Of a DNA stretch of 26,169 nucleotides, positions 4,062 to 26,159 are shown in pieces. The DNA comes from Chlamydiota bacterium (GTDB lineage Bacteria > Auribacterota > JACPWU01). Below the pieces are notes generated by a model, which did no database searches, was not told where the DNA came from, and was given only the letters and a program-made list of their open reading frames with translations. The translations under genes and the position numbers were made by a program. The stretch covers positions 1 through 26,169 of the forward strand of contig JACPWU010000018.1 in NCBI GenBank assembly GCA_016196885.1, read 5' to 3'. Position 1 is the first letter of the stretch; the number at the start of each line of letters is the position of its first letter.

Positions 4062-4134
4062 GTACGTCGTACTTCGTGCATCGAACATCGATCGTTCCTT
4101 GTAGGTGAAGTACGAAGTACGATGTTCATAGCAC
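4062..4134. repeat. heptad-periodic complementary blocks (GTACTTC/GAAGTAC family)
   Basis: The left block is GTACGTC GTACTTC GTGCATC GAACATC GATCGTT (4062-4096). The right block is GAAGTAC GAAGTAC GATGTTC ATAGCAC (4107-4134). Confidence 0.7.
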
Positions 4135-4869: not shown

Positions 4870-4886
4870 TTAAATCAAAAATGACA

Positions 4887-4971
4887 ACAGTCGTGAGTCG
4901 TCTGTCGTGGGTCGTGAGTTTTAAAGGTATTATTTTTTACTCACGACTCACCCCTCACGACTCACGACTGT
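4887..4971. repeat. long heptad-based hairpin (GTCGTGA family) followed by T5
   Basis: The arms are 4887-4919 and 4939-4971. There are 15 perfect bp outside, a 9x9 internal loop, 9 perfect bp inside and a 19-nt loop. TTTTT at 4971-4975 overlaps the last stem base, and the AGGAG of hisF follows. Confidence 0.85.
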
Positions 4972-4986
4972 TTTTAGGAGTTTTTC

Positions 4987-6122: not shown

Positions 6123-6195
6123 CGTACTTCGTACGGCGAACTTCGAACATCGTTTTGAAAGGTTTTATTTTTCGAAGTACGAAGTACGAAGTACG
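6123..6195. repeat. long heptad-based hairpin (GTACTTC/CGAAGTA family)
   Basis: Left arm 6123-6147 pairs with right arm 6171-6195: 12 bp, a 5x5 internal loop (2 of its 5 positions can still pair), then 8 bp. The right arm is (CGAAGTA)x3. The loop is 23 nt. Confidence 0.85.
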
Positions 6196-8326: not shown

Positions 8327-8444
8327 GGTTATCCAAAAGTTCAATGATTCCCCTCCCTTGATGGGAGGGGTTAGGGGAGGGTGATCTTAAAGACACCCCC
8401 TCCCTAACCCTCCCCACAAAGGGGAGGGAATTTTTCGGATAGCC
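8327..8444. repeat. G-rich palindromic repeat element, copy A
   Basis: It forms a three-hairpin palindrome (CCCCTCCC-ttgat-GGGAGGGG; GGGGAGGGTG...CACCCCCTCC; CCCTCCCC-acaaa-GGGGAGGG) with outer arms GGTTATCCAAAAG / TTTTTCGGATAGCC. The reverse complement of 8349-8440 matches 18656-18746 almost exactly outside the central loop. Confidence 0.9.
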
Positions 8445-8463: not shown

Positions 8464-9474
8464 ATGATTTTCAAAGATGCTCTTGAAAAGGTGATTCAAA
8501 GAGAGAATTTGTCGGCCAAAGAAGCCTCTTTTCTTATGGAAGAGATTATGATGGGCCATCTGACACCTGCTCAAATGGGGGCATTGCTGGTGGCTCTCAG
8601 AATGAAGGGTGAAACAGTAGAGGAAATTGCTGGCTTTGCGACAGTGATGCGCAAGATGGTGAGGGAGATTCATACCCATCATCCGATTGTGGTAGATACT
8701 TGTGGGACTGGAGGGGATGGGTTAAAGACTTTTAATATTTCTACAACGGCAGCATTTGTCGTAGCGGGTGCAGGAGTGCCTGTGGCCAAGCATGGAAATG
8801 TCGCAGTTTCGAGCGCTTGTGGTAGTGCGGACCTTTTGAAGGGTTTGGGAATTAAGATTGATGCAGATCGTTCTCTGATGGAAAAAGCTTTAAATGATTT
8901 GGGCATTTGTTTTCTTTTCGCCCCTCTTTTTCATCATGCGATGAAGCATGTTGCAACGCCTCGCCGAGAGTTGGGAATTCGAACGGTTTTTAATATTTTG
9001 GGTCCCTTGACCAATCCTGCTCGTGCCAAGGCGCAGGTGTTAGGTGTTTCTCGAAAAGATTTGGTTTCGACACTGGCGCAGGTATTGATGAAGTTAGGGA
9101 GTGAGCAGGCTTTTGTGGTTTATGGCGAAGATGGATCAGATGAGGTGACGACAACCTCCCTGACGCATGTGGCCCAGTTAAAAGAAGGTCACGTGAGGTA
9201 TTTTGAATTTAATCCAGAGGAATTGGGTATTGCACGCGCATCTCTTTCAGATTTGCAAGGGGGAGATCTTCAGACAAATGTAAAGATTTCTCAAAATATA
9301 TTGGAAGGGCAAAAGGGGCCTCCTCGAGATGTGGTTTTGGTGAATGCAGCTTTTGCGATTTTAGCGGGAAATGGGGCGCTGGACTTGAAAGAGGCTTTTC
9401 AAAAGGCCCAAGAGGCCATTGATTCGGGGAAGGCGAAGCAAAAATTAGAAGAATTGGCAAAATACACCTGTTGA
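8464..9474 (+). CDS. trpD: anthranilate phosphoribosyltransferase
   Basis: 336 aa with CGTGGDG and KHGN motifs. Confidence 0.95.
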   Translation: MIFKDALEKVIQRENLSAKEASFLMEEIMMGHLTPAQMGALLVALRMKGETVEEIAGFATVMRKMVREIHTHHPIVVDTCGTGGDGLKTFNISTTAAFVVAGAGVPVAKHGNVAVSSACGSADLLKGLGIKIDADRSLMEKALNDLGICFLFAPLFHHAMKHVATPRRELGIRTVFNILGPLTNPARAKAQVLGVSRKDLVSTLAQVLMKLGSEQAFVVYGEDGSDEVTTTSLTHVAQLKEGHVRYFEFNPEELGIARASLSDLQGGDLQTNVKISQNILEGQKGPPRDVVLVNAAFAILAGNGALDLKEAFQKAQEAIDSGKAKQKLEELAKYTC

Positions 9475-9597
9475 GACCTCTGAAAAAGGCCCATCTGCTT
9501 CGTTGCCTGCTTCGCTTAGTCGTGCGGCGTACTGGAAAACGTACGCCTCCTCCTTCGCTCGCAGGCGCCTTGCATCTGGGACCTTTTTGAGAGGTCT
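9474..9597. repeat. 124-nt imperfect palindrome (trpD-trpC spacer)
   Basis: Outer pairing is AGACCTCT (9474-9481) with AGAGGTCT (9590-9597) and AAAAAGG (9483-9489) with CCTTTTT (9582-9588). Further in, GCCTGC pairs with GCAGGC (9505-9510/9561-9566). The central hairpin is GGCGTAC-tggaaaac-GTACGCC (9527-9547). Confidence 0.7.
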
Positions 9598-9632
9598 TTA
9601 GAAATAAGAGTTTTTTAGAGGTTAAAAACCAT

Positions 9633-10421
9633 ATGTCAGTTTCATTTTTAGAAGAAATTATTCATCACAAAAGAATTGAAATAGAAGAGAGAAAAAGAAA
9701 TCTCTCCTTAGAAAATTTGATGACAGATGCCAATCTCAAAGTTAAAAGGGCTGATTTTGAGAAGGCGATCACTCGCCAGCCAGGTGGGCCTTTGCGGTTG
9801 ATTGCTGAGATTAAAAAGGCATCGCCTTCAAAGGGACTGCTTCGGAAAGATTTTCATCCGACGCAAATTGCCCAAACTTACGAGAAATATGGGGCTCATG
9901 CAATTTCTGTTTTAACGGATGAAAAATATTTTCAGGGGAGTTTGGATGATTTAAAGGCAGTTTCGGAAGTGGTTTCGCTGCCCTTGCTCAGAAAAGATTT
10001 TATTTTAGATGCATATCAAATTTATGAGGCAAAAGCTTATGGAACCAGTGCCATTTTATTGATTGTGGCCGCTTTGGAGAAAAATGAGTTGTCTTTGCTC
10101 TTGAAAGAAGCTGGGAAAATGGGTCTTTCTGTTTTGACGGAAGTTCATGATGAAAAGGAACTTGAAATTGCTTTGGAAGTAGGTGCAAACCTAATAGGGA
10201 TTAACAATCGAAATTTAAAAACTTTTGAAGTTGATTTAAAGAATTGTGGGAAGTTGATCCCAAAAATTCCCAAAGGAAAAAGAATCGTGATTGAGAGTGG
10301 CATTTTGAAACGGCAAGATGTGCTTTGGGTGGAGAGTCTTCCCGTAGATGCAATTTTGGTAGGTGAGGCGTTTATGCAGGCTCAGGATATGGGTGCAAAA
10401 ATAAGGGAGTTGATGCATTAA
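9633..10421 (+). CDS. trpC: indole-3-glycerol-phosphate synthase
   Basis: 262 aa with EIKKASPSKG and LRKDF motifs. Confidence 0.93.
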   Translation: MSVSFLEEIIHHKRIEIEERKRNLSLENLMTDANLKVKRADFEKAITRQPGGPLRLIAEIKKASPSKGLLRKDFHPTQIAQTYEKYGAHAISVLTDEKYFQGSLDDLKAVSEVVSLPLLRKDFILDAYQIYEAKAYGTSAILLIVAALEKNELSLLLKEAGKMGLSVLTEVHDEKELEIALEVGANLIGINNRNLKTFEVDLKNCGKLIPKIPKGKRIVIESGILKRQDVLWVESLPVDAILVGEAFMQAQDMGAKIRELMH

Positions 10422-10453
10422 ACGGACGACGATCGACGAACGACGAGATACGG
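10422..10453. repeat. tandem degenerate heptads ACGNNNN x5
   Basis: The units are ACGGACG ACGATCG ACGAACG ACGAGAT ACGG.., starting one base after the trpC stop and ending 8 nt before the trpF ATG. Confidence 0.6.
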
Positions 10454-10460
10454 TTTTTTT

Positions 10461-11075
10461 ATGGTGAAAGTCAAAATTTGCGGCATTACCAATTTAGAGG
10501 ATGCGCTTCAAGCAGTTGAAGCGGGCGCAGACGCTTTGGGTTTTAATTTTTATTCAAAGAGTCCGAGATGTTTGACTTCTAAACAGGCAAAGGAAATAAT
10601 GAGTCAGCTTCCCCCTTTTGTGACGTGCGTGGGTGTTTTTGTGAATGCAAAAAGGGAGGATGTTCAAAAAATTGTTGAAGAAACAGGAATAGAGATTGTT
10701 CAATTTCATGGGGATGAAAGACCGCAAGATTGTGAGCCGTTTTCGCGGGCGATGAAGGCTTTTAGAGTGGAAGATAAAATAGGGGATGTAAAATTATATG
10801 ATGGCATTTCTGCCATTCTGTTGGACGCATCCCATCAGGGAGACTACGGCGGTACGGGGAAAACATTTGATTGGAAGAAGGCAGAGCCTTTTCAAAAACT
10901 GGGAAAACCTTTGATTCTCTCAGGGGGGCTGGGTCCAGATAATGTCATGGAGGCTGTCCAAAAAGTAAGACCGTACGCAGTAGATGCGTGCAGTCGTTTA
11001 GAAGATTCGCCGGGCAAAAAGAATCATGAGTATATCAGGCTCTTCATCCGAAGGGCGAAAGAGGCCATAGAATGA
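10461..11075 (+). CDS. trpF: phosphoribosylanthranilate isomerase
   Basis: 204 aa with N-terminal VKICGIT and a C-terminal SGGL pattern. Confidence 0.9.
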   Translation: MVKVKICGITNLEDALQAVEAGADALGFNFYSKSPRCLTSKQAKEIMSQLPPFVTCVGVFVNAKREDVQKIVEETGIEIVQFHGDERPQDCEPFSRAMKAFRVEDKIGDVKLYDGISAILLDASHQGDYGGTGKTFDWKKAEPFQKLGKPLILSGGLGPDNVMEAVQKVRPYAVDACSRLEDSPGKKNHEYIRLFIRRAKEAIE

Positions 11076-11078
11076 TCG

Positions 11079-11349
11079 TGTATTTAAAAGTGTGTCCTTT
11101 TAAGAGGAGGCGGGTCCTGTCCCTCCTCACCCAGCAAGGCAGGTTTTTCTGCCGGTGGCAGAAAAACCTACCGCGGTAGTAAATGTTATTTTTCGTTTAT
11201 CAACTGACGGCACAGAGGTTATAGCCCCTGTGGGGTCGGTCTCGGTTTGGTTTTTGAAGAGTCATTTTCAAGTCTCGACCTGCTGGCGATCAGCGGGGGA
11301 CCCCCAGTCGGGCCACCCGCATCCATAAAAGGACACACTTTTAAATACA
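11079..11349. other. unclassified GC-rich structured element bounded by perfect 24-bp inverted repeats (candidate ncRNA or MITE/PATE-like element)
   Basis: TGTATTTAAAAGTGTGTCCTTTTA (11079-11102) is the exact reverse complement of 11326-11349. Each arm is itself a 7-bp hairpin (TTAAAAG-tgtgtc-CTTTTAA). The interior holds a perfect 13-bp hairpin (11141-11153/11157-11169), a 7-bp hairpin (11104-11110/11122-11128) and a 7-of-8 hairpin (11211-11218/11225-11232). GCATCCATA is directly repeated at 11319-11327 and 11350-11358, flanking the right arm. Confidence 0.7.
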
Positions 11350-11360
11350 GCATCCATAGA

Positions 11361-11394
11361 ATATCTCTAGTAAATTTTAATTTACTAGAGATAT
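11361..11394. promoter_or_regulatory. perfect 16-bp-arm palindrome (candidate operator)
   Basis: ATATCTCTAGTAAATT-tt-AATTTACTAGAGATAT. The right half overlaps the -35 of the putative ATPase promoter. Confidence 0.55.
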
Positions 11395-11410
11395 GTATTT
11401 GTGGTAATAT
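11382..11410 (+). promoter_or_regulatory. putative sigma70-type promoter of the inserted ATPase gene
   Basis: TTACTA (11382-11387), a 17-nt spacer, then TAATAT (11405-11410) preceded by TGG (extended -10 like). It lies 22 nt upstream of the ATG, with AGAGG in between. Confidence 0.45.
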
Positions 11411-11431
11411 ATTATTTACCAGAGGTATTCT

Positions 11432-12871
11432 ATGGCGATGGATGGGGAAAAAAAGGAAAAGATCTTTCGGTTTTTGCAAGACCAAATTGCGGAGGCTCCG
11501 TTCCGTATCAAGGCCTATGTTTTGGACGAGGAAGGTAAGGAGCATCCTCGGCGTGAGGTTTTTGGAAAGCTCCATGGATTTATGGGAGATTTTCTTAAAC
11601 GGCCTTCGGGAGCCAGGTGCTTTGTCCTGACAGGACTGAGGGGGGCTGGGAAGACAACCCTTTTGGCTCAGCTTTATCATGAGAGCCCTGATCGGGATAT
11701 TTATAAGCTCTATCTTTCTGTAGATCAGATGGTTTCTCTTTTGGAGGTTTCTCTTCAAGAGGTTCTCGATGTCTACGAGGAGTTGATTTCAGTGGCCTTT
11801 GAAAGGCTCGATCAACCTCTGGTCCTTTTCTTGGATGAGATTCAGTACGATCCCAAATGGGGGATGGTTCTCAAGAGTTTGTACGATCGCTCTCGAAAGG
11901 TTTTTGTTTTTGCAACAGGTTCATCGGCTCTGCTTCTCCAGACAAATGCGGATGTCGCAAGGCGGGCTATTTTTGAAAAGTTGTTTCCATTGAGATTCAC
12001 AGAGTATGCTCGGATTAAACATGGGCAAGAGGAGGTTTCTGGATTAGGGGCGGAGCTTCAAAGTGCCCTTTTTAAATCTTTGACTTCAGAGGAAGTTTAT
12101 CTTCGCTTGAAGTCTAAAGAGGGGCTGGTTCGGGGCTATTGGAGTCATATTGAGAGACTGGAGCTGGATCGCTATTTGCGATGTGGGTCGCTTCCCTACA
12201 TGCTGAGTTTGAAAAATGAGGCATGGGTTTACGATCAGATTAAAAAGACTTTGGATCGTGTCGTAAGTGTGGATATGGCTCAGCATGGAAAATTTTCATC
12301 TGAGGTTATTTCAAAGGTTCCTGGAATCTTATACAGGATTGCAGATTCAGGTGAACTCAGTTTGACGCGTCTTTGTCAGACGGTAGAAATCAGCAAGCCC
12401 AAGTTGATGGAGATTCTGGATGTTTTAGAAAAAACAGAGGTCCTGCTCAGGGTTTACCCTTATGGTTCTCACACCGTGCAGGTTCGTAAGCCCTCTAAAT
12501 ATCTTTTTGGCGCTCCGGCTTTTCGGGCGATGTATTTTAATTTTGTTGGGAGTATTCGCTCTCAAGGGGAGGAGATGGGGAAATTATGGGAGGATACGGT
12601 CGGGATGTATCTGACCATTTTCTTGGCGAAAAAGATCCATACGTTCTTGAGTTACGACAGTGCTCAGGGGGGAGCAGATTTCATTGTTGGATTTGGGAAA
12701 GAAAGAATCATTCTCGAGGTGGGCAGTGGCAATAAAGGATTTGAACAAATTACTCAGACTTCGAAAAAAGTTTCAGCCAAGTATGGATTGGTGGTTTCAC
12801 GGGACACTTTGATGCATGCTCGCGATGCGAATGTGGTCAGGGTTCCTCTGGAATTTTTTTTATTGATGTGA
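11432..12871 (+). CDS. AAA+ ATPase, AAA_14-like N-domain plus DUF4143-like C-domain (COG1373-type)
   Basis: 479 aa with Walker A (GLRGAGKTT), a family-typical Walker B region (LFLDEIQYDPKWGMVLKSLYD) and a C-terminal GGADFIV...ILEVGSG core. AGAGG lies 6 nt upstream of the ATG, and the gene has its own promoter-like sequence. It interrupts trpF/trpB. Confidence 0.8.
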   Translation: MAMDGEKKEKIFRFLQDQIAEAPFRIKAYVLDEEGKEHPRREVFGKLHGFMGDFLKRPSGARCFVLTGLRGAGKTTLLAQLYHESPDRDIYKLYLSVDQMVSLLEVSLQEVLDVYEELISVAFERLDQPLVLFLDEIQYDPKWGMVLKSLYDRSRKVFVFATGSSALLLQTNADVARRAIFEKLFPLRFTEYARIKHGQEEVSGLGAELQSALFKSLTSEEVYLRLKSKEGLVRGYWSHIERLELDRYLRCGSLPYMLSLKNEAWVYDQIKKTLDRVVSVDMAQHGKFSSEVISKVPGILYRIADSGELSLTRLCQTVEISKPKLMEILDVLEKTEVLLRVYPYGSHTVQVRKPSKYLFGAPAFRAMYFNFVGSIRSQGEEMGKLWEDTVGMYLTIFLAKKIHTFLSYDSAQGGADFIVGFGKERIILEVGSGNKGFEQITQTSKKVSAKYGLVVSRDTLMHARDANVVRVPLEFFLLM

Positions 12872-12921: not shown

Positions 12922-12966
12922 GTAGTCGCCCCATTTATGGGGCTGCCCGATGAATCGGGCGACTAC
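12922..12966. repeat. REP-like GTAG...CTAC element with two internal hairpins
   Basis: The outer stem GTAGTCGC (12922-12929) with GCGACTAC (12959-12966) encloses CCCCA-ttta-TGGGG (12929-12942) and GCCCGA-tgaa-TCGGGC (12945-12960). The helices share edge bases, so not all can form at full length together. Confidence 0.6.
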
Positions 12967-18655: not shown

Positions 18656-18746
18656 ATCCGAAAAGTTCCCTCCCCCTTGTGGGGAGGGTTAGGGAGGGGG
18701 TGCTTGAGCTCACCCTCCCCTAACCCCTCCCATCAAGGGAGGGGAA
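18656..18746. repeat. G-rich palindromic repeat element, copy B (inverted relative to copy A)
   Basis: Compared with the reverse complement of 8349-8440, the arms are identical except for 2 mismatches, and the 34-nt right arm is exact. Only the central loop differs. Confidence 0.9.
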
Positions 18747-20593: not shown

Positions 20594-20597
20594 AAAA

Positions 20598-20625
20598 CAG
20601 AAGACAGAAGACAGAAGACAGAAAA
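20598..20625. repeat. tandem heptads (CAGAAGA)x3 plus a degenerate 4th unit
   Basis: There are three perfect CAGAAGA units followed by CAGAAAA, beginning 5 nt after the lepA stop. Confidence 0.85.
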
Positions 20626-22884: not shown

Positions 22885-22954
22885 TCCATGGTCCACAGTC
22901 CATAGAAATAAATCATTCCTTTAGAACCGTGGACTATTGACTGTGGACTATGGA
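22885..22954. repeat. heptad-based hairpin (GTCCACA/GTCCATA family)
   Basis: TCCATGGTCCACAGTCCATAG (22885-22905) pairs with CTATTGACTGTGGACTATGGA (22934-22954) at 19 of 21 positions, with a 28-nt loop. It starts 1 nt after the upstream stop and covers ATG 22950. Confidence 0.8.
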
Positions 22955-24281: not shown

Positions 24282-24491
24282 TTAGATCAGATCTTTAAAT
24301 TCTTCTTCGCTAAGACCAGAGTCTTTGATGATGGATTTTAAGGTATAAGGGTTGATTCTCTTATGACGCGGAATGGTTAGATGGTGTTTACTGTCAGACA
24401 TGCCGATGTGTTTACCCTGCTTTATGATTCTAAATCCTACTTTGGAGAAAGCGTTAACAATTCTCTCAGAGGAGAGATCAGTGAATAACAT
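24282..24491 (-). CDS. hicA: HicA-family (YcfA-like) mRNA interferase toxin
   Basis: 69 aa with the pattern GFRIIKQGKHIGMSD...LTIPRHKRINPYTLKSIIKDSGLS, typical of HicA/YcfA. The start overlaps the hicB stop in TAATG (shared base 24491). Confidence 0.82.
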   Translation of the reverse strand: MLFTDLSSERIVNAFSKVGFRIIKQGKHIGMSDSKHHLTIPRHKRINPYTLKSIIKDSGLSEEEFKDLI

Positions 24492-24700
24492 TAGATTGCT
24501 ACCTCAACTTCATAAAGAGAGCCCTTAGATTCTTCCGAAATCATTTCAAGATAGGTGTGGATGGCGTCTTTGATATTCTCCAGTGCTTCTTCCAAAGTAT
24601 CTCCCTGACTGTGACATCCTGGTAGAAGGGGACAGTGAATATCATAGCCATACTCGCTTTTATGAACAACAACAGGATATTTCATGGTAAAAAAACCCAT
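24491..24700 (-). CDS. hicB: HicB-family (UPF0150) antitoxin, core domain only
   Basis: 69 aa with YPVVVHKSEYGYDIHCPLLPGCHSQGDTLEEALENIKDAI, the HicB N-domain signature. There is no appended HTH/RHH DNA-binding domain. Confidence 0.82.
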   Translation of the reverse strand: MGFFTMKYPVVVHKSEYGYDIHCPLLPGCHSQGDTLEEALENIKDAIHTYLEMISEESKGSLYEVEVAI

Positions 24701-25070: not shown

Positions 25071-26159
25071 GTGACGATTCTGTCTCGATTGATCCAAAAA
25101 TGCATCAGCTTGGTATTATGTCTTTCTTTCCTAACTTATGATATCACAGTGAGTTATGGTCAAGACATGCAGATTTCTGGCATGGTGAAGGCTTCTTCTA
25201 CCCCTGTTGAGTTCAAAGAGCTACTCGAAAACATTCAAATTCCCAATGAAATAGGTGAAATCATTGACCAAAAAATAGTTCCCAATCGACCCATGCTTTA
25301 CATCATTGAAGACATTCACTGCCACAGTGAGGTTCAGGCGAATATTGCAAGGATATTAAAACAGTTAGAAGTTAAAAGTTCAAAGTTGGAAGAAAAAAAT
25401 AAAGAGACCTTTAAAACTTCCAACTTCCAACATCTAACTTCTAACCGTTTTTACGTCTTTTCCGAAGGCTCTGTCAACAAGATGGACATGAGCTTCTTTA
25501 CCGGATTCCCTGACAAAGAGGCCCTACAAAAGGCGCAAAGCAAATTCATAAAAGACCATTCCATTAATGGAGTGGAGGCCTTTCTGATAGGAGAAGGAAA
25601 TCATATGGCAGAAGGTCTCGGTGCAGAAGACCTATCAGCTTATGTCGACAACATCAAATTCATGGGCGAATTTATGGAAGAGAAAGAGCTTCAGGAACAG
25701 GTCTGGAGTAATCTCGAAGAAACTTTTAAAAATTTGAGAAAAAAGATTTATTCTCCCGAATTATTAGAACTCATGAATAAACGGGATCAATATAGCCAAT
25801 TCAAAATAGGGGTGAAGGAATATGTTTCTTATCTATTGGATGAAGAATCTAAGTCTTCTCAATATCCAACCATTCAAAAATTCACAGAACTCCAAGTTCT
25901 CGAAGAAGAAACAGACATATCAAAAGTAGAAAGTGAATACCTTGCATTCCTTTCTGAATTAGAAAAGAAGCTTCCCAAAGAAGAATTAAACGAAGTTTTG
26001 AAAAATGTCTTAGAACATCGGTTGGGGAGAATCAGTGATCAGGAGCATTATTTGTTTTTAAGTCGATATCTAGACGCGGAAGGTGGAGAGGGTTTCTCCC
26101 CTCTTTTTTTCAATCCCACAGGAACTATAAAATCTCGAGAGGGGTCGGGGGGGAGTTAG
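25071..26159 (+). CDS. hypothetical secreted/membrane-anchored protein, Glu/Lys-rich
   Basis: 362-aa ORF from GTG with GAGGAG 9 nt upstream and a hydrophobic signal-like N-terminus (CISLVLCLSFL). I recognise no family with confidence. It contains an in-frame heptad hairpin (25364-25445), and its 3' end runs into a G-rich repeat, so the true stop and extent are uncertain. Confidence 0.55.
   Translation: MTILSRLIQKCISLVLCLSFLTYDITVSYGQDMQISGMVKASSTPVEFKELLENIQIPNEIGEIIDQKIVPNRPMLYIIEDIHCHSEVQANIARILKQLEVKSSKLEEKNKETFKTSNFQHLTSNRFYVFSEGSVNKMDMSFFTGFPDKEALQKAQSKFIKDHSINGVEAFLIGEGNHMAEGLGAEDLSAYVDNIKFMGEFMEEKELQEQVWSNLEETFKNLRKKIYSPELLELMNKRDQYSQFKIGVKEYVSYLLDEESKSSQYPTIQKFTELQVLEEETDISKVESEYLAFLSELEKKLPKEELNEVLKNVLEHRLGRISDQEHYLFLSRYLDAEGGEGFSPLFFNPTGTIKSREGSGGS
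25364..25445. repeat. heptad-based hairpin (AGTTNNA / AACTTCC family) inside the predicted ORF
   Basis: Arms 25364-25392 and 25417-25445 are complementary at 25 of 29 positions (11 perfect bp outside, 9 perfect bp inside), with a 24-nt A-rich loop. TTTTT lies at 25448-25452. Confidence 0.8.

Follow-up and report, generated by a model that had tools for sequence, protein, structure and literature searches.

MITEs of prokaryotes are shorter than 500 bp, their inverted repeats measure 4-30 bp and are accompanied by flanking direct repeats, and their transcripts form stable stem-loops (PMC10969869). QMITE2 of Coxiella has inverted repeats of 23-29 bp and direct repeats of 7-9 bp (PMC10969869). 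The Acinetobacter element MITEAba12 has 9-bp duplications and shares its ends with ISAba12 (PMC6382973). In Geobacter uraniireducens, a MITE named Chunjie is described as ~235 bp long, with inverted and direct repeats, and as lying within an operon of housekeeping genes; the same description counts 37 further full copies in the genome (Chen et al. 2008, as given in PMC10969869).

REP and BIME sequences associated with RAYT (Y1) proteins are likewise small, intergenic and palindromic. They are imperfect palindromes of 20-40 nt starting with GTAG, and they have neither long terminal inverted repeats nor a target duplication. Elements derived from IS200/IS605, like REPs, lack terminal inverted repeats and target-site duplications. 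In invertons (fimS-like invertible promoters), inverted repeats flank a few hundred bp upstream of a gene.

The element analysed here is 281 bp long (11074-11354), and is bounded by a 29-nt inverted repeat with a perfect 24-nt core. It belongs to an uncultivated bacterial lineage related to Chlamydiae and Verrucomicrobia. The window, that is, the whole stretch of 26,169 nt that was analysed, corresponds to contig JACOUD010000077.1 of the MAG GCA_016178005.1. It is a his-trp cluster with the gene order hisDCBHAFI, trpE, trpG, trpD, trpC, trpF, element, ATPase gene, trpB, trpA, manC, ruvX etc. We consider the element a probable MITE (probability roughly 65%), representing a new sequence family of a known kind of element. 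In common with QMITE2 and MITEAba12, it is shorter than 500 bp and non-coding, with inverted repeats in the range of 16-29 bp, direct repeats in the range of 7-9 bp, a transcript predicted as one long stable stem-loop and an interior unrelated to any transposase. It has no sequence similarity to either of them, its interior is G+C-rich instead of A+T-rich, and, unlike MITEAba12, it has no known parent insertion sequence. Chunjie, compared by description only, is similar in being a small MITE with inverted and direct repeats inside an operon. It differs in its 37 further copies, whereas no further copy of the element was found in collections that lack the source locus. The parts of the element are as follows.

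11074..11102, no strand: left terminal inverted repeat GATCGTGTATTTAAAAGTGTGTCCTTTTA, with the perfect core at 11079-11102
11084-11103: small palindrome TTAAAAG-tgtgtc-CTTTTAA in the left terminal inverted repeat
11103..11325, no strand: non-coding interior with several nested hairpins, 223 nt, 55.6% G+C
11326..11354, no strand: right terminal inverted repeat TAAAAGGACACACTTTTAAATACAGCATC, 29 nt, the pair being 93% complementary

A first-pass annotation of this DNA had reported a perfect 24-bp inverted repeat, far beyond chance, which closed an element of 271 bp. The repeat was indeed present (11079-11102 / 11326-11349), and among perfect inverted repeats within 400 nt it was the longest one of the whole window. 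Across 100 Markov-shuffled versions of the window, the maximum was 17 nt and the mean near 12. The limits of the core (11079-11349) were right, but the repeat runs further out, to 29 nt with 93% complementarity (11074-11102 / 11326-11354, with 223 nt between the arms), which gives the element its 281 bp. Inward, it grows to ~37 nt if a 2-nt indel is allowed. When a 21-mer from the arm was searched in the window with up to 3 mismatches, it matched at the two arms only (0.01 matches expected by chance). The arms had a G+C content of 31%. Both contain a small hairpin, as had been noticed before, but the stem has 7 bp only in the left arm and 6 bp in the right one, and both hairpins are weak as DNA (-1.7 to -3 kcal/mol).

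Each outer end of the inverted repeat is adjoined by one copy of a 9-bp direct repeat, CCATAGAAT (11065-11073 and 11354-11362), and the two copies match perfectly. This direct repeat had escaped the first-pass annotation. The chance of finding a flanking repeat of at least 9 nt at such a site was ~1e-4, as estimated from random pairs of window positions with ±2 nt slack. The last base of the inverted repeat overlaps the right copy, so that the duplication is 8 or 9 bp long. The features flanking the element are listed below.

10461..11075, + strand: trpF (Pfam PRAI, E = 3.5e-42)
11065..11073: left copy of CCATAGAAT (100% identical repeat), taken as a target-site duplication; makes up the final codons of trpF
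11354..11362: right copy of CCATAGAAT, sharing base 11354 with the inverted repeat
11354..11435, + strand: 82-nt hairpin, read as pre-existing and as the insertion target; the right arm includes both the ribosome-binding site and the start codon of the ATPase gene
11432-12871: AAA_14/DUF4143 ATPase gene, downstream of the element and before trpB

The element had been placed immediately after trpF. This position needs correction, because the trpF stop codon TGA (11073-11075) straddles the left boundary, with one base from the duplication and two from the element. When 11074-11362 was removed in silico, the sequence continued as …GCC ATA GAA TAT CTC TAG, an in-frame trpF ending in …EAIEYL*, two codons longer than at present. 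The empty site reconstructed in this way, by deleting the element and one copy of the repeat, is GAGGCCATAGAATATCTCTAG. Its outer stem, GCCATAGAAT/ATTCTATGGC, has 10 bp compared to 9 at present, through the added pair G11064-C11436, and the predicted fold of the hairpin improves from -36.8 to -40.1 kcal/mol. The base G11064 lies on the left of the element yet extends the hairpin on its right, as one would predict if the two flanks had originally adjoined each other.

A perfect 16-bp palindrome (11361-11394) forms part of the 82-nt hairpin. The right arm of the hairpin pairs with the region of the AGAGG ribosome-binding site and with the ATPase start codon ATG, and the weak promoter-like matches inside the hairpin are the only sigma-70-like ones near this gene. 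We can speculate that transcripts reading through from trpF could hide the ATPase start, unlike those initiated at an internal promoter.

The 9-nt direct repeat GCATCCATA noted earlier on both sides of the right arm was also present, at 11319-11327 and 11350-11358. In its longer form, the arm is flanked by GCATCCATAAAA (11319-11330) and GCATCCATAGAA (11350-11361). The outer copy, GCATCCATAGAA, is a hybrid of the element end (GCATC) and the duplicated target (CATAGAA). The likeness of the inner copy, GCATCCATAAAA, to end plus target may be due to chance or to target choice.

The closest trpF proteins were 59-65% identical. At all four relative loci fetched (L005, L006, L032 and L033), trpB directly follows trpF, with a gap of -8 to +24 nt. 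Therefore, the whole 1.94 kb between the two genes in the window is lineage-specific. It consists of the element, the 82-nt hairpin, the ATPase gene and a REP pair. Empty sites with trpF followed by trpB had been envisaged for relatives, and this gene order was found in the four, but what they lack is the whole ~1.9-kb region and not the element by itself, so they do not represent the exact empty site, in which the ATPase gene would be there without the element.

At best, homologues of the ATPase were 58-59% identical, and the named ones among these were from Patescibacteria-type MAGs. They are solitary genes in unrelated contexts. The ATPase gene looks horizontally acquired. The duplicated 9-mer belongs to the hairpin in front of the ATPase gene, and the ATPase insertion therefore came first and the element second.

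This order bears on an earlier proposal, in which the element was a cis-acting end belonging to the unit that brought the ATPase gene in between trpF and trpB. In its favor, the element adjoins a gene that was apparently acquired horizontally, and the relatives are without both. However, the element is self-contained, with two ends and a duplication of its own, and by the order given above it arrived later than the ATPase gene. A third copy of the end was not present beyond the ATPase gene, and no direct or inverted repeat bracketed the 1.9-kb insertion. Further copies had also been anticipated beside AAA_14/DUF4143 genes, and nothing similar to the element was found on either side of the ATPase homologues at five loci (L006-L010). 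We thus reject this proposal as extremely improbable.

In the sister locus L006, another AAA_14/DUF4143 ATPase gene is located between trpA and manC (9752-10966). It is only 21% identical to the ATPase in the window at the protein level, which indicates independent insertions into the same operon. Genes of this type seem to act as solitary genes that are mobile or selfish. DUF4143 is reportedly mentioned in a survey of the PD-(D/E)XK nuclease superfamily (PMC3424549). The presence of unrelated ATPase genes at different points of one operon in two MAGs may be a more interesting lead than the element. A HicA toxin and HicB antitoxin gene pair is found elsewhere in the window, on the minus strand (24282-24700).

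The interior of the element was described as GC-rich by the first-pass annotation, and its G+C content was 55.6%, compared to 43.6% for the whole window. The perfect 13-bp stem reported at 11141-11169 was present too. It is part of the largest interior hairpin, which has a 16-bp stem with 94% complementarity (11138-11172). Among ORFs with a start codon and contained entirely in the element, the longest had 57 aa. The concatenated six-frame translation of the element, meant to catch spurious ORFs called on other copies, had no match among 5.8 billion proteins, and a Pfam search of the translated frames gave no family. A stop-free frame of 74 aa, compared with 1.84 billion representative proteins, had a single match, a TPR-repeat STAND protein. 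This match is the sum of weak matches (19-25% identity) to a tandem repeat and was dismissed as a repeat artefact. Tandem repeats, tRNA or tmRNA genes, and promoter-like or terminator-like sites were not detected inside the element, the promoter search including sigma-70-like sites on either strand.

As RNA, the whole element had a very stable predicted fold, with -131 kcal/mol (z = -9.9) for the plus strand. This, its location within the operon transcript and the z-score of the interior alone (-4.8 for the plus strand) are compatible with an undescribed structured ncRNA or cis-regulatory RNA of the trp operon, of which the inverted repeats would be the closing stem. The reverse strand folded as well or better, with -128 kcal/mol (z = -10.0) for the whole element and z = -5.5 for the interior. 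Such an equal fold on both strands is indicative of palindromic DNA rather than of a strand-specific RNA gene. Rfam gave zero matches in the element at gathering thresholds. At permissive thresholds there were only three matches inside it, all sub-threshold and at chance level, the best one being tfoR with 17.6 bits against a threshold of 70, and the lack of resemblance to known RNA families stated in the first-pass annotation therefore holds. No homologue was present in the collections searched, thus conservation or covariation does not support an RNA. In addition, the element is missing from four of the four closest syntenic relatives, and the flanking duplication marks an insertion. An ncRNA, one of the candidates put forward before, is thus unsupported and in our view improbable.

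The terminal inverted repeats and the flanking duplication favor a non-autonomous mobile element, which had been another of the earlier candidates. The mechanism attached to it does not agree with the same features. It assumed an element of the IS200/IS605 (PATE) or REP type, moved in single-stranded form by a Y1 (HUH) transposase that recognises the end hairpins. Each arm does contain a small hairpin, and the lineage does carry REPs. An inverted REP pair, made up of GTAGTCGCCCCATTTATGGGGC and the reverse complement of GTAGTCGCCCGATTCATCGGGC, is found at 12922-12966, between the ATPase gene and trpB and in the same intergenic stretch as the element. A sister MAG has a Y1 transposase gene, flanked by the same REPs, inside its trp operon. 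However, PATE and REP families have no terminal inverted repeats and no target-site duplications. In the element, the inverted repeat runs well beyond the arm hairpin on both sides, and the hairpins are weak. There is no Y1 transposase in the window. The REP pair, 1.6 kb downstream of the element, has the 5' GTAG signature and is unrelated to it in sequence. The element lacks the GTAG motif, whose only matches in the window are those at 12922-12966, and has no similarity to the REPs of L006. Mobilisation by a Y1 transposase is thus very improbable.

In the sister MAG (GCA_016178055.1), the same REP occurs ~10 times around the Y1_Tnp (RAYT-like) gene (L006, 7973-8835), which is inserted between trpB and trpA. 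The REPs and the Y1_Tnp gene together are a classic REP-plus-RAYT unit.

Further copies, a question raised in the first-pass annotation, were not found in genome, metagenome, plasmid, phage or viral collections, from which the source locus itself is absent, nor was there another copy in the window. The genome and metagenome collections do not contain the window's own locus, and their negative results therefore mean only that the element is not widespread. A 20-mer from the element end had one single-arm match each in 185,579 species genomes, in JGI metagenomes and in viral contigs, most likely by chance. BLASTN gave no match in plasmids and one weak match of 36 nt in phages (E = 0.9). In viral contigs, a degenerate pattern of the end had 18 single-arm matches and a pattern of the interior stem had none.

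A Logan contig (L004, run SRR12113387) was identical to the window over 9568-11102, and its ends are informative. Logan assemblies are built as de Bruijn graphs at k = 31, where each 31-mer occurs only once (PMC12424806). A contig that comes from unique sequence is therefore expected to end 30 nt into a repeated one. On its left, L004 begins exactly 30 nt inside the right boundary (9597) of a second inverted-repeat-bounded element (9474-9597). The right end lies 29 nt inside the 281-bp element, or 30 nt from T11073, one base off the simplest expectation. Together, the two ends indirectly suggest that both elements (11074-11354 and 9474-9597) are repeated in the sample.

The right end of L004 can be read in another way, because position 11102 is also the inner edge of the perfect left repeat. 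An inverted isoform would break the graph alike, since the two orientations would diverge there at k = 31. This would fit an inverton, in which a recombinase would flip the 223-bp interior and change the expression of the downstream ATPase gene. In such an isoform, 11073-11102 would be followed by TGGATGCGGG…, with a mirror junction at the other end, as reconstructed here. The general layout, with inverted repeats of 24-29 nt around ~220 bp just upstream of a gene, is also similar to invertons. Against this, no sigma-70-like promoter was detected inside the element on either strand, no invertase or other recombinase is encoded in the 26-kb window, and the 9-bp flanking direct repeat is not a feature of invertons. 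The 82-nt hairpin, with the nearest sigma-70-like matches, separates the element from the ATPase gene. Furthermore, L004 obeys the multi-copy rule at its other end, where the repeat of the element is not long enough for an inversion branch. We consider an inverton quite improbable.

With its terminal inverted repeats, its target-site duplication, its 281 bp and its lack of coding capacity, the element has the anatomy of a MITE. The element is well below ~500 bp, has no transposase gene, and is bordered by inverted repeats and, in the single copy seen, by a flanking direct repeat. The G+C-rich interior argues against this reading, as MITEs are typically A+T-rich. A transposase or a parent insertion sequence with matching ends was found neither in the window nor by exact-match scans for the end.

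The combination of a 29-nt inverted repeat with a 9-bp direct repeat points to a MITE moved by a DDE-type transposase. Duplications of 8-9 bp are found in several DDE families, among them IS1, IS4, IS5/IS903, IS256 and ISAs1. A transposase encoded elsewhere in the genome would bind both 29-nt terminal inverted repeats and mobilise the element in trans. The small palindrome in each end would suit a dimeric DNA-binding domain. The enzyme would cut the target with a 9-bp stagger and join the element ends to it, and gap repair would then duplicate CCATAGAAT on both sides. The target would have been the left arm of the hairpin that overlaps the last trpF codons, just upstream of the ATPase gene. 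Through the insertion, trpF would have lost its last two codons (Tyr-Leu) and gained in their place a stop codon that arose at the junction, and a very stable stem-loop would have come to lie in the operon transcript. The likely effect at this locus is a two-codon truncation of trpF and a structured insert in the operon mRNA.

If confirmed, the element would represent an orphan family of MITEs in a bacterial lineage that is uncultivated and poorly sampled. It would also be a clear case in which a MITE has given a biosynthetic gene within an operon a new stop codon at its end. For annotation, the MITE reading avoids calling the element an RNA gene, and it helps explain why short reads of this lineage assemble into fragments. 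For transposon biology, no new question arises from it.

The second element bounded by inverted repeats, at 9474-9597, is 124 bp long and directly follows the trpD stop codon. Its arms, AGACCTCTGAAAAAGGCCCA and TGGGACCTTTTTGAGAGGTCT, each form a small hairpin, and no flanking duplication was visible. In the relative L005, the gap between trpD and trpC is only 12 nt. A hairpin of similar kind, GACCTTTTTAAGAGGTCT (2579-2596), stands alone after the stop codon of hisC. The two elements are unrelated to each other, yet both are hairpin-ended and sit in a palindrome-packed genome, which gives some ground for a bolder reading. They could belong to an undescribed class of hairpin-ended mobile elements, with an unknown enzyme that makes a 9-bp duplication. 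Alternatively, the 281-bp element could be an inverting switch of the ATPase-nuclease. Either way, this reading is improbable, and we prefer the MITE.

Palindromic repeats were found in nearly every intergenic gap of the his-trp window, and this wider pattern may be more interesting than the element. One G-rich palindrome family, GGGAGGGGTTAGGGGAGGG…, occurs in the trpG-trpD gap (8347-8431) and in the rpe-lepA gap (18666-18746). The copies span 105 nt, are 90% identical and have opposite orientations; this is a dispersed repeat family. Other palindromes consist of inverted short tandem units (4064-4125, 4886-4972, 6123-6195, 20594-20620, 22885-22954 and 25349-25460), the units including GTACGAA, CGTGAGT and AGAAGAC. 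In L006, ATCCGCA repeats are located in front of manC (11010-11040).
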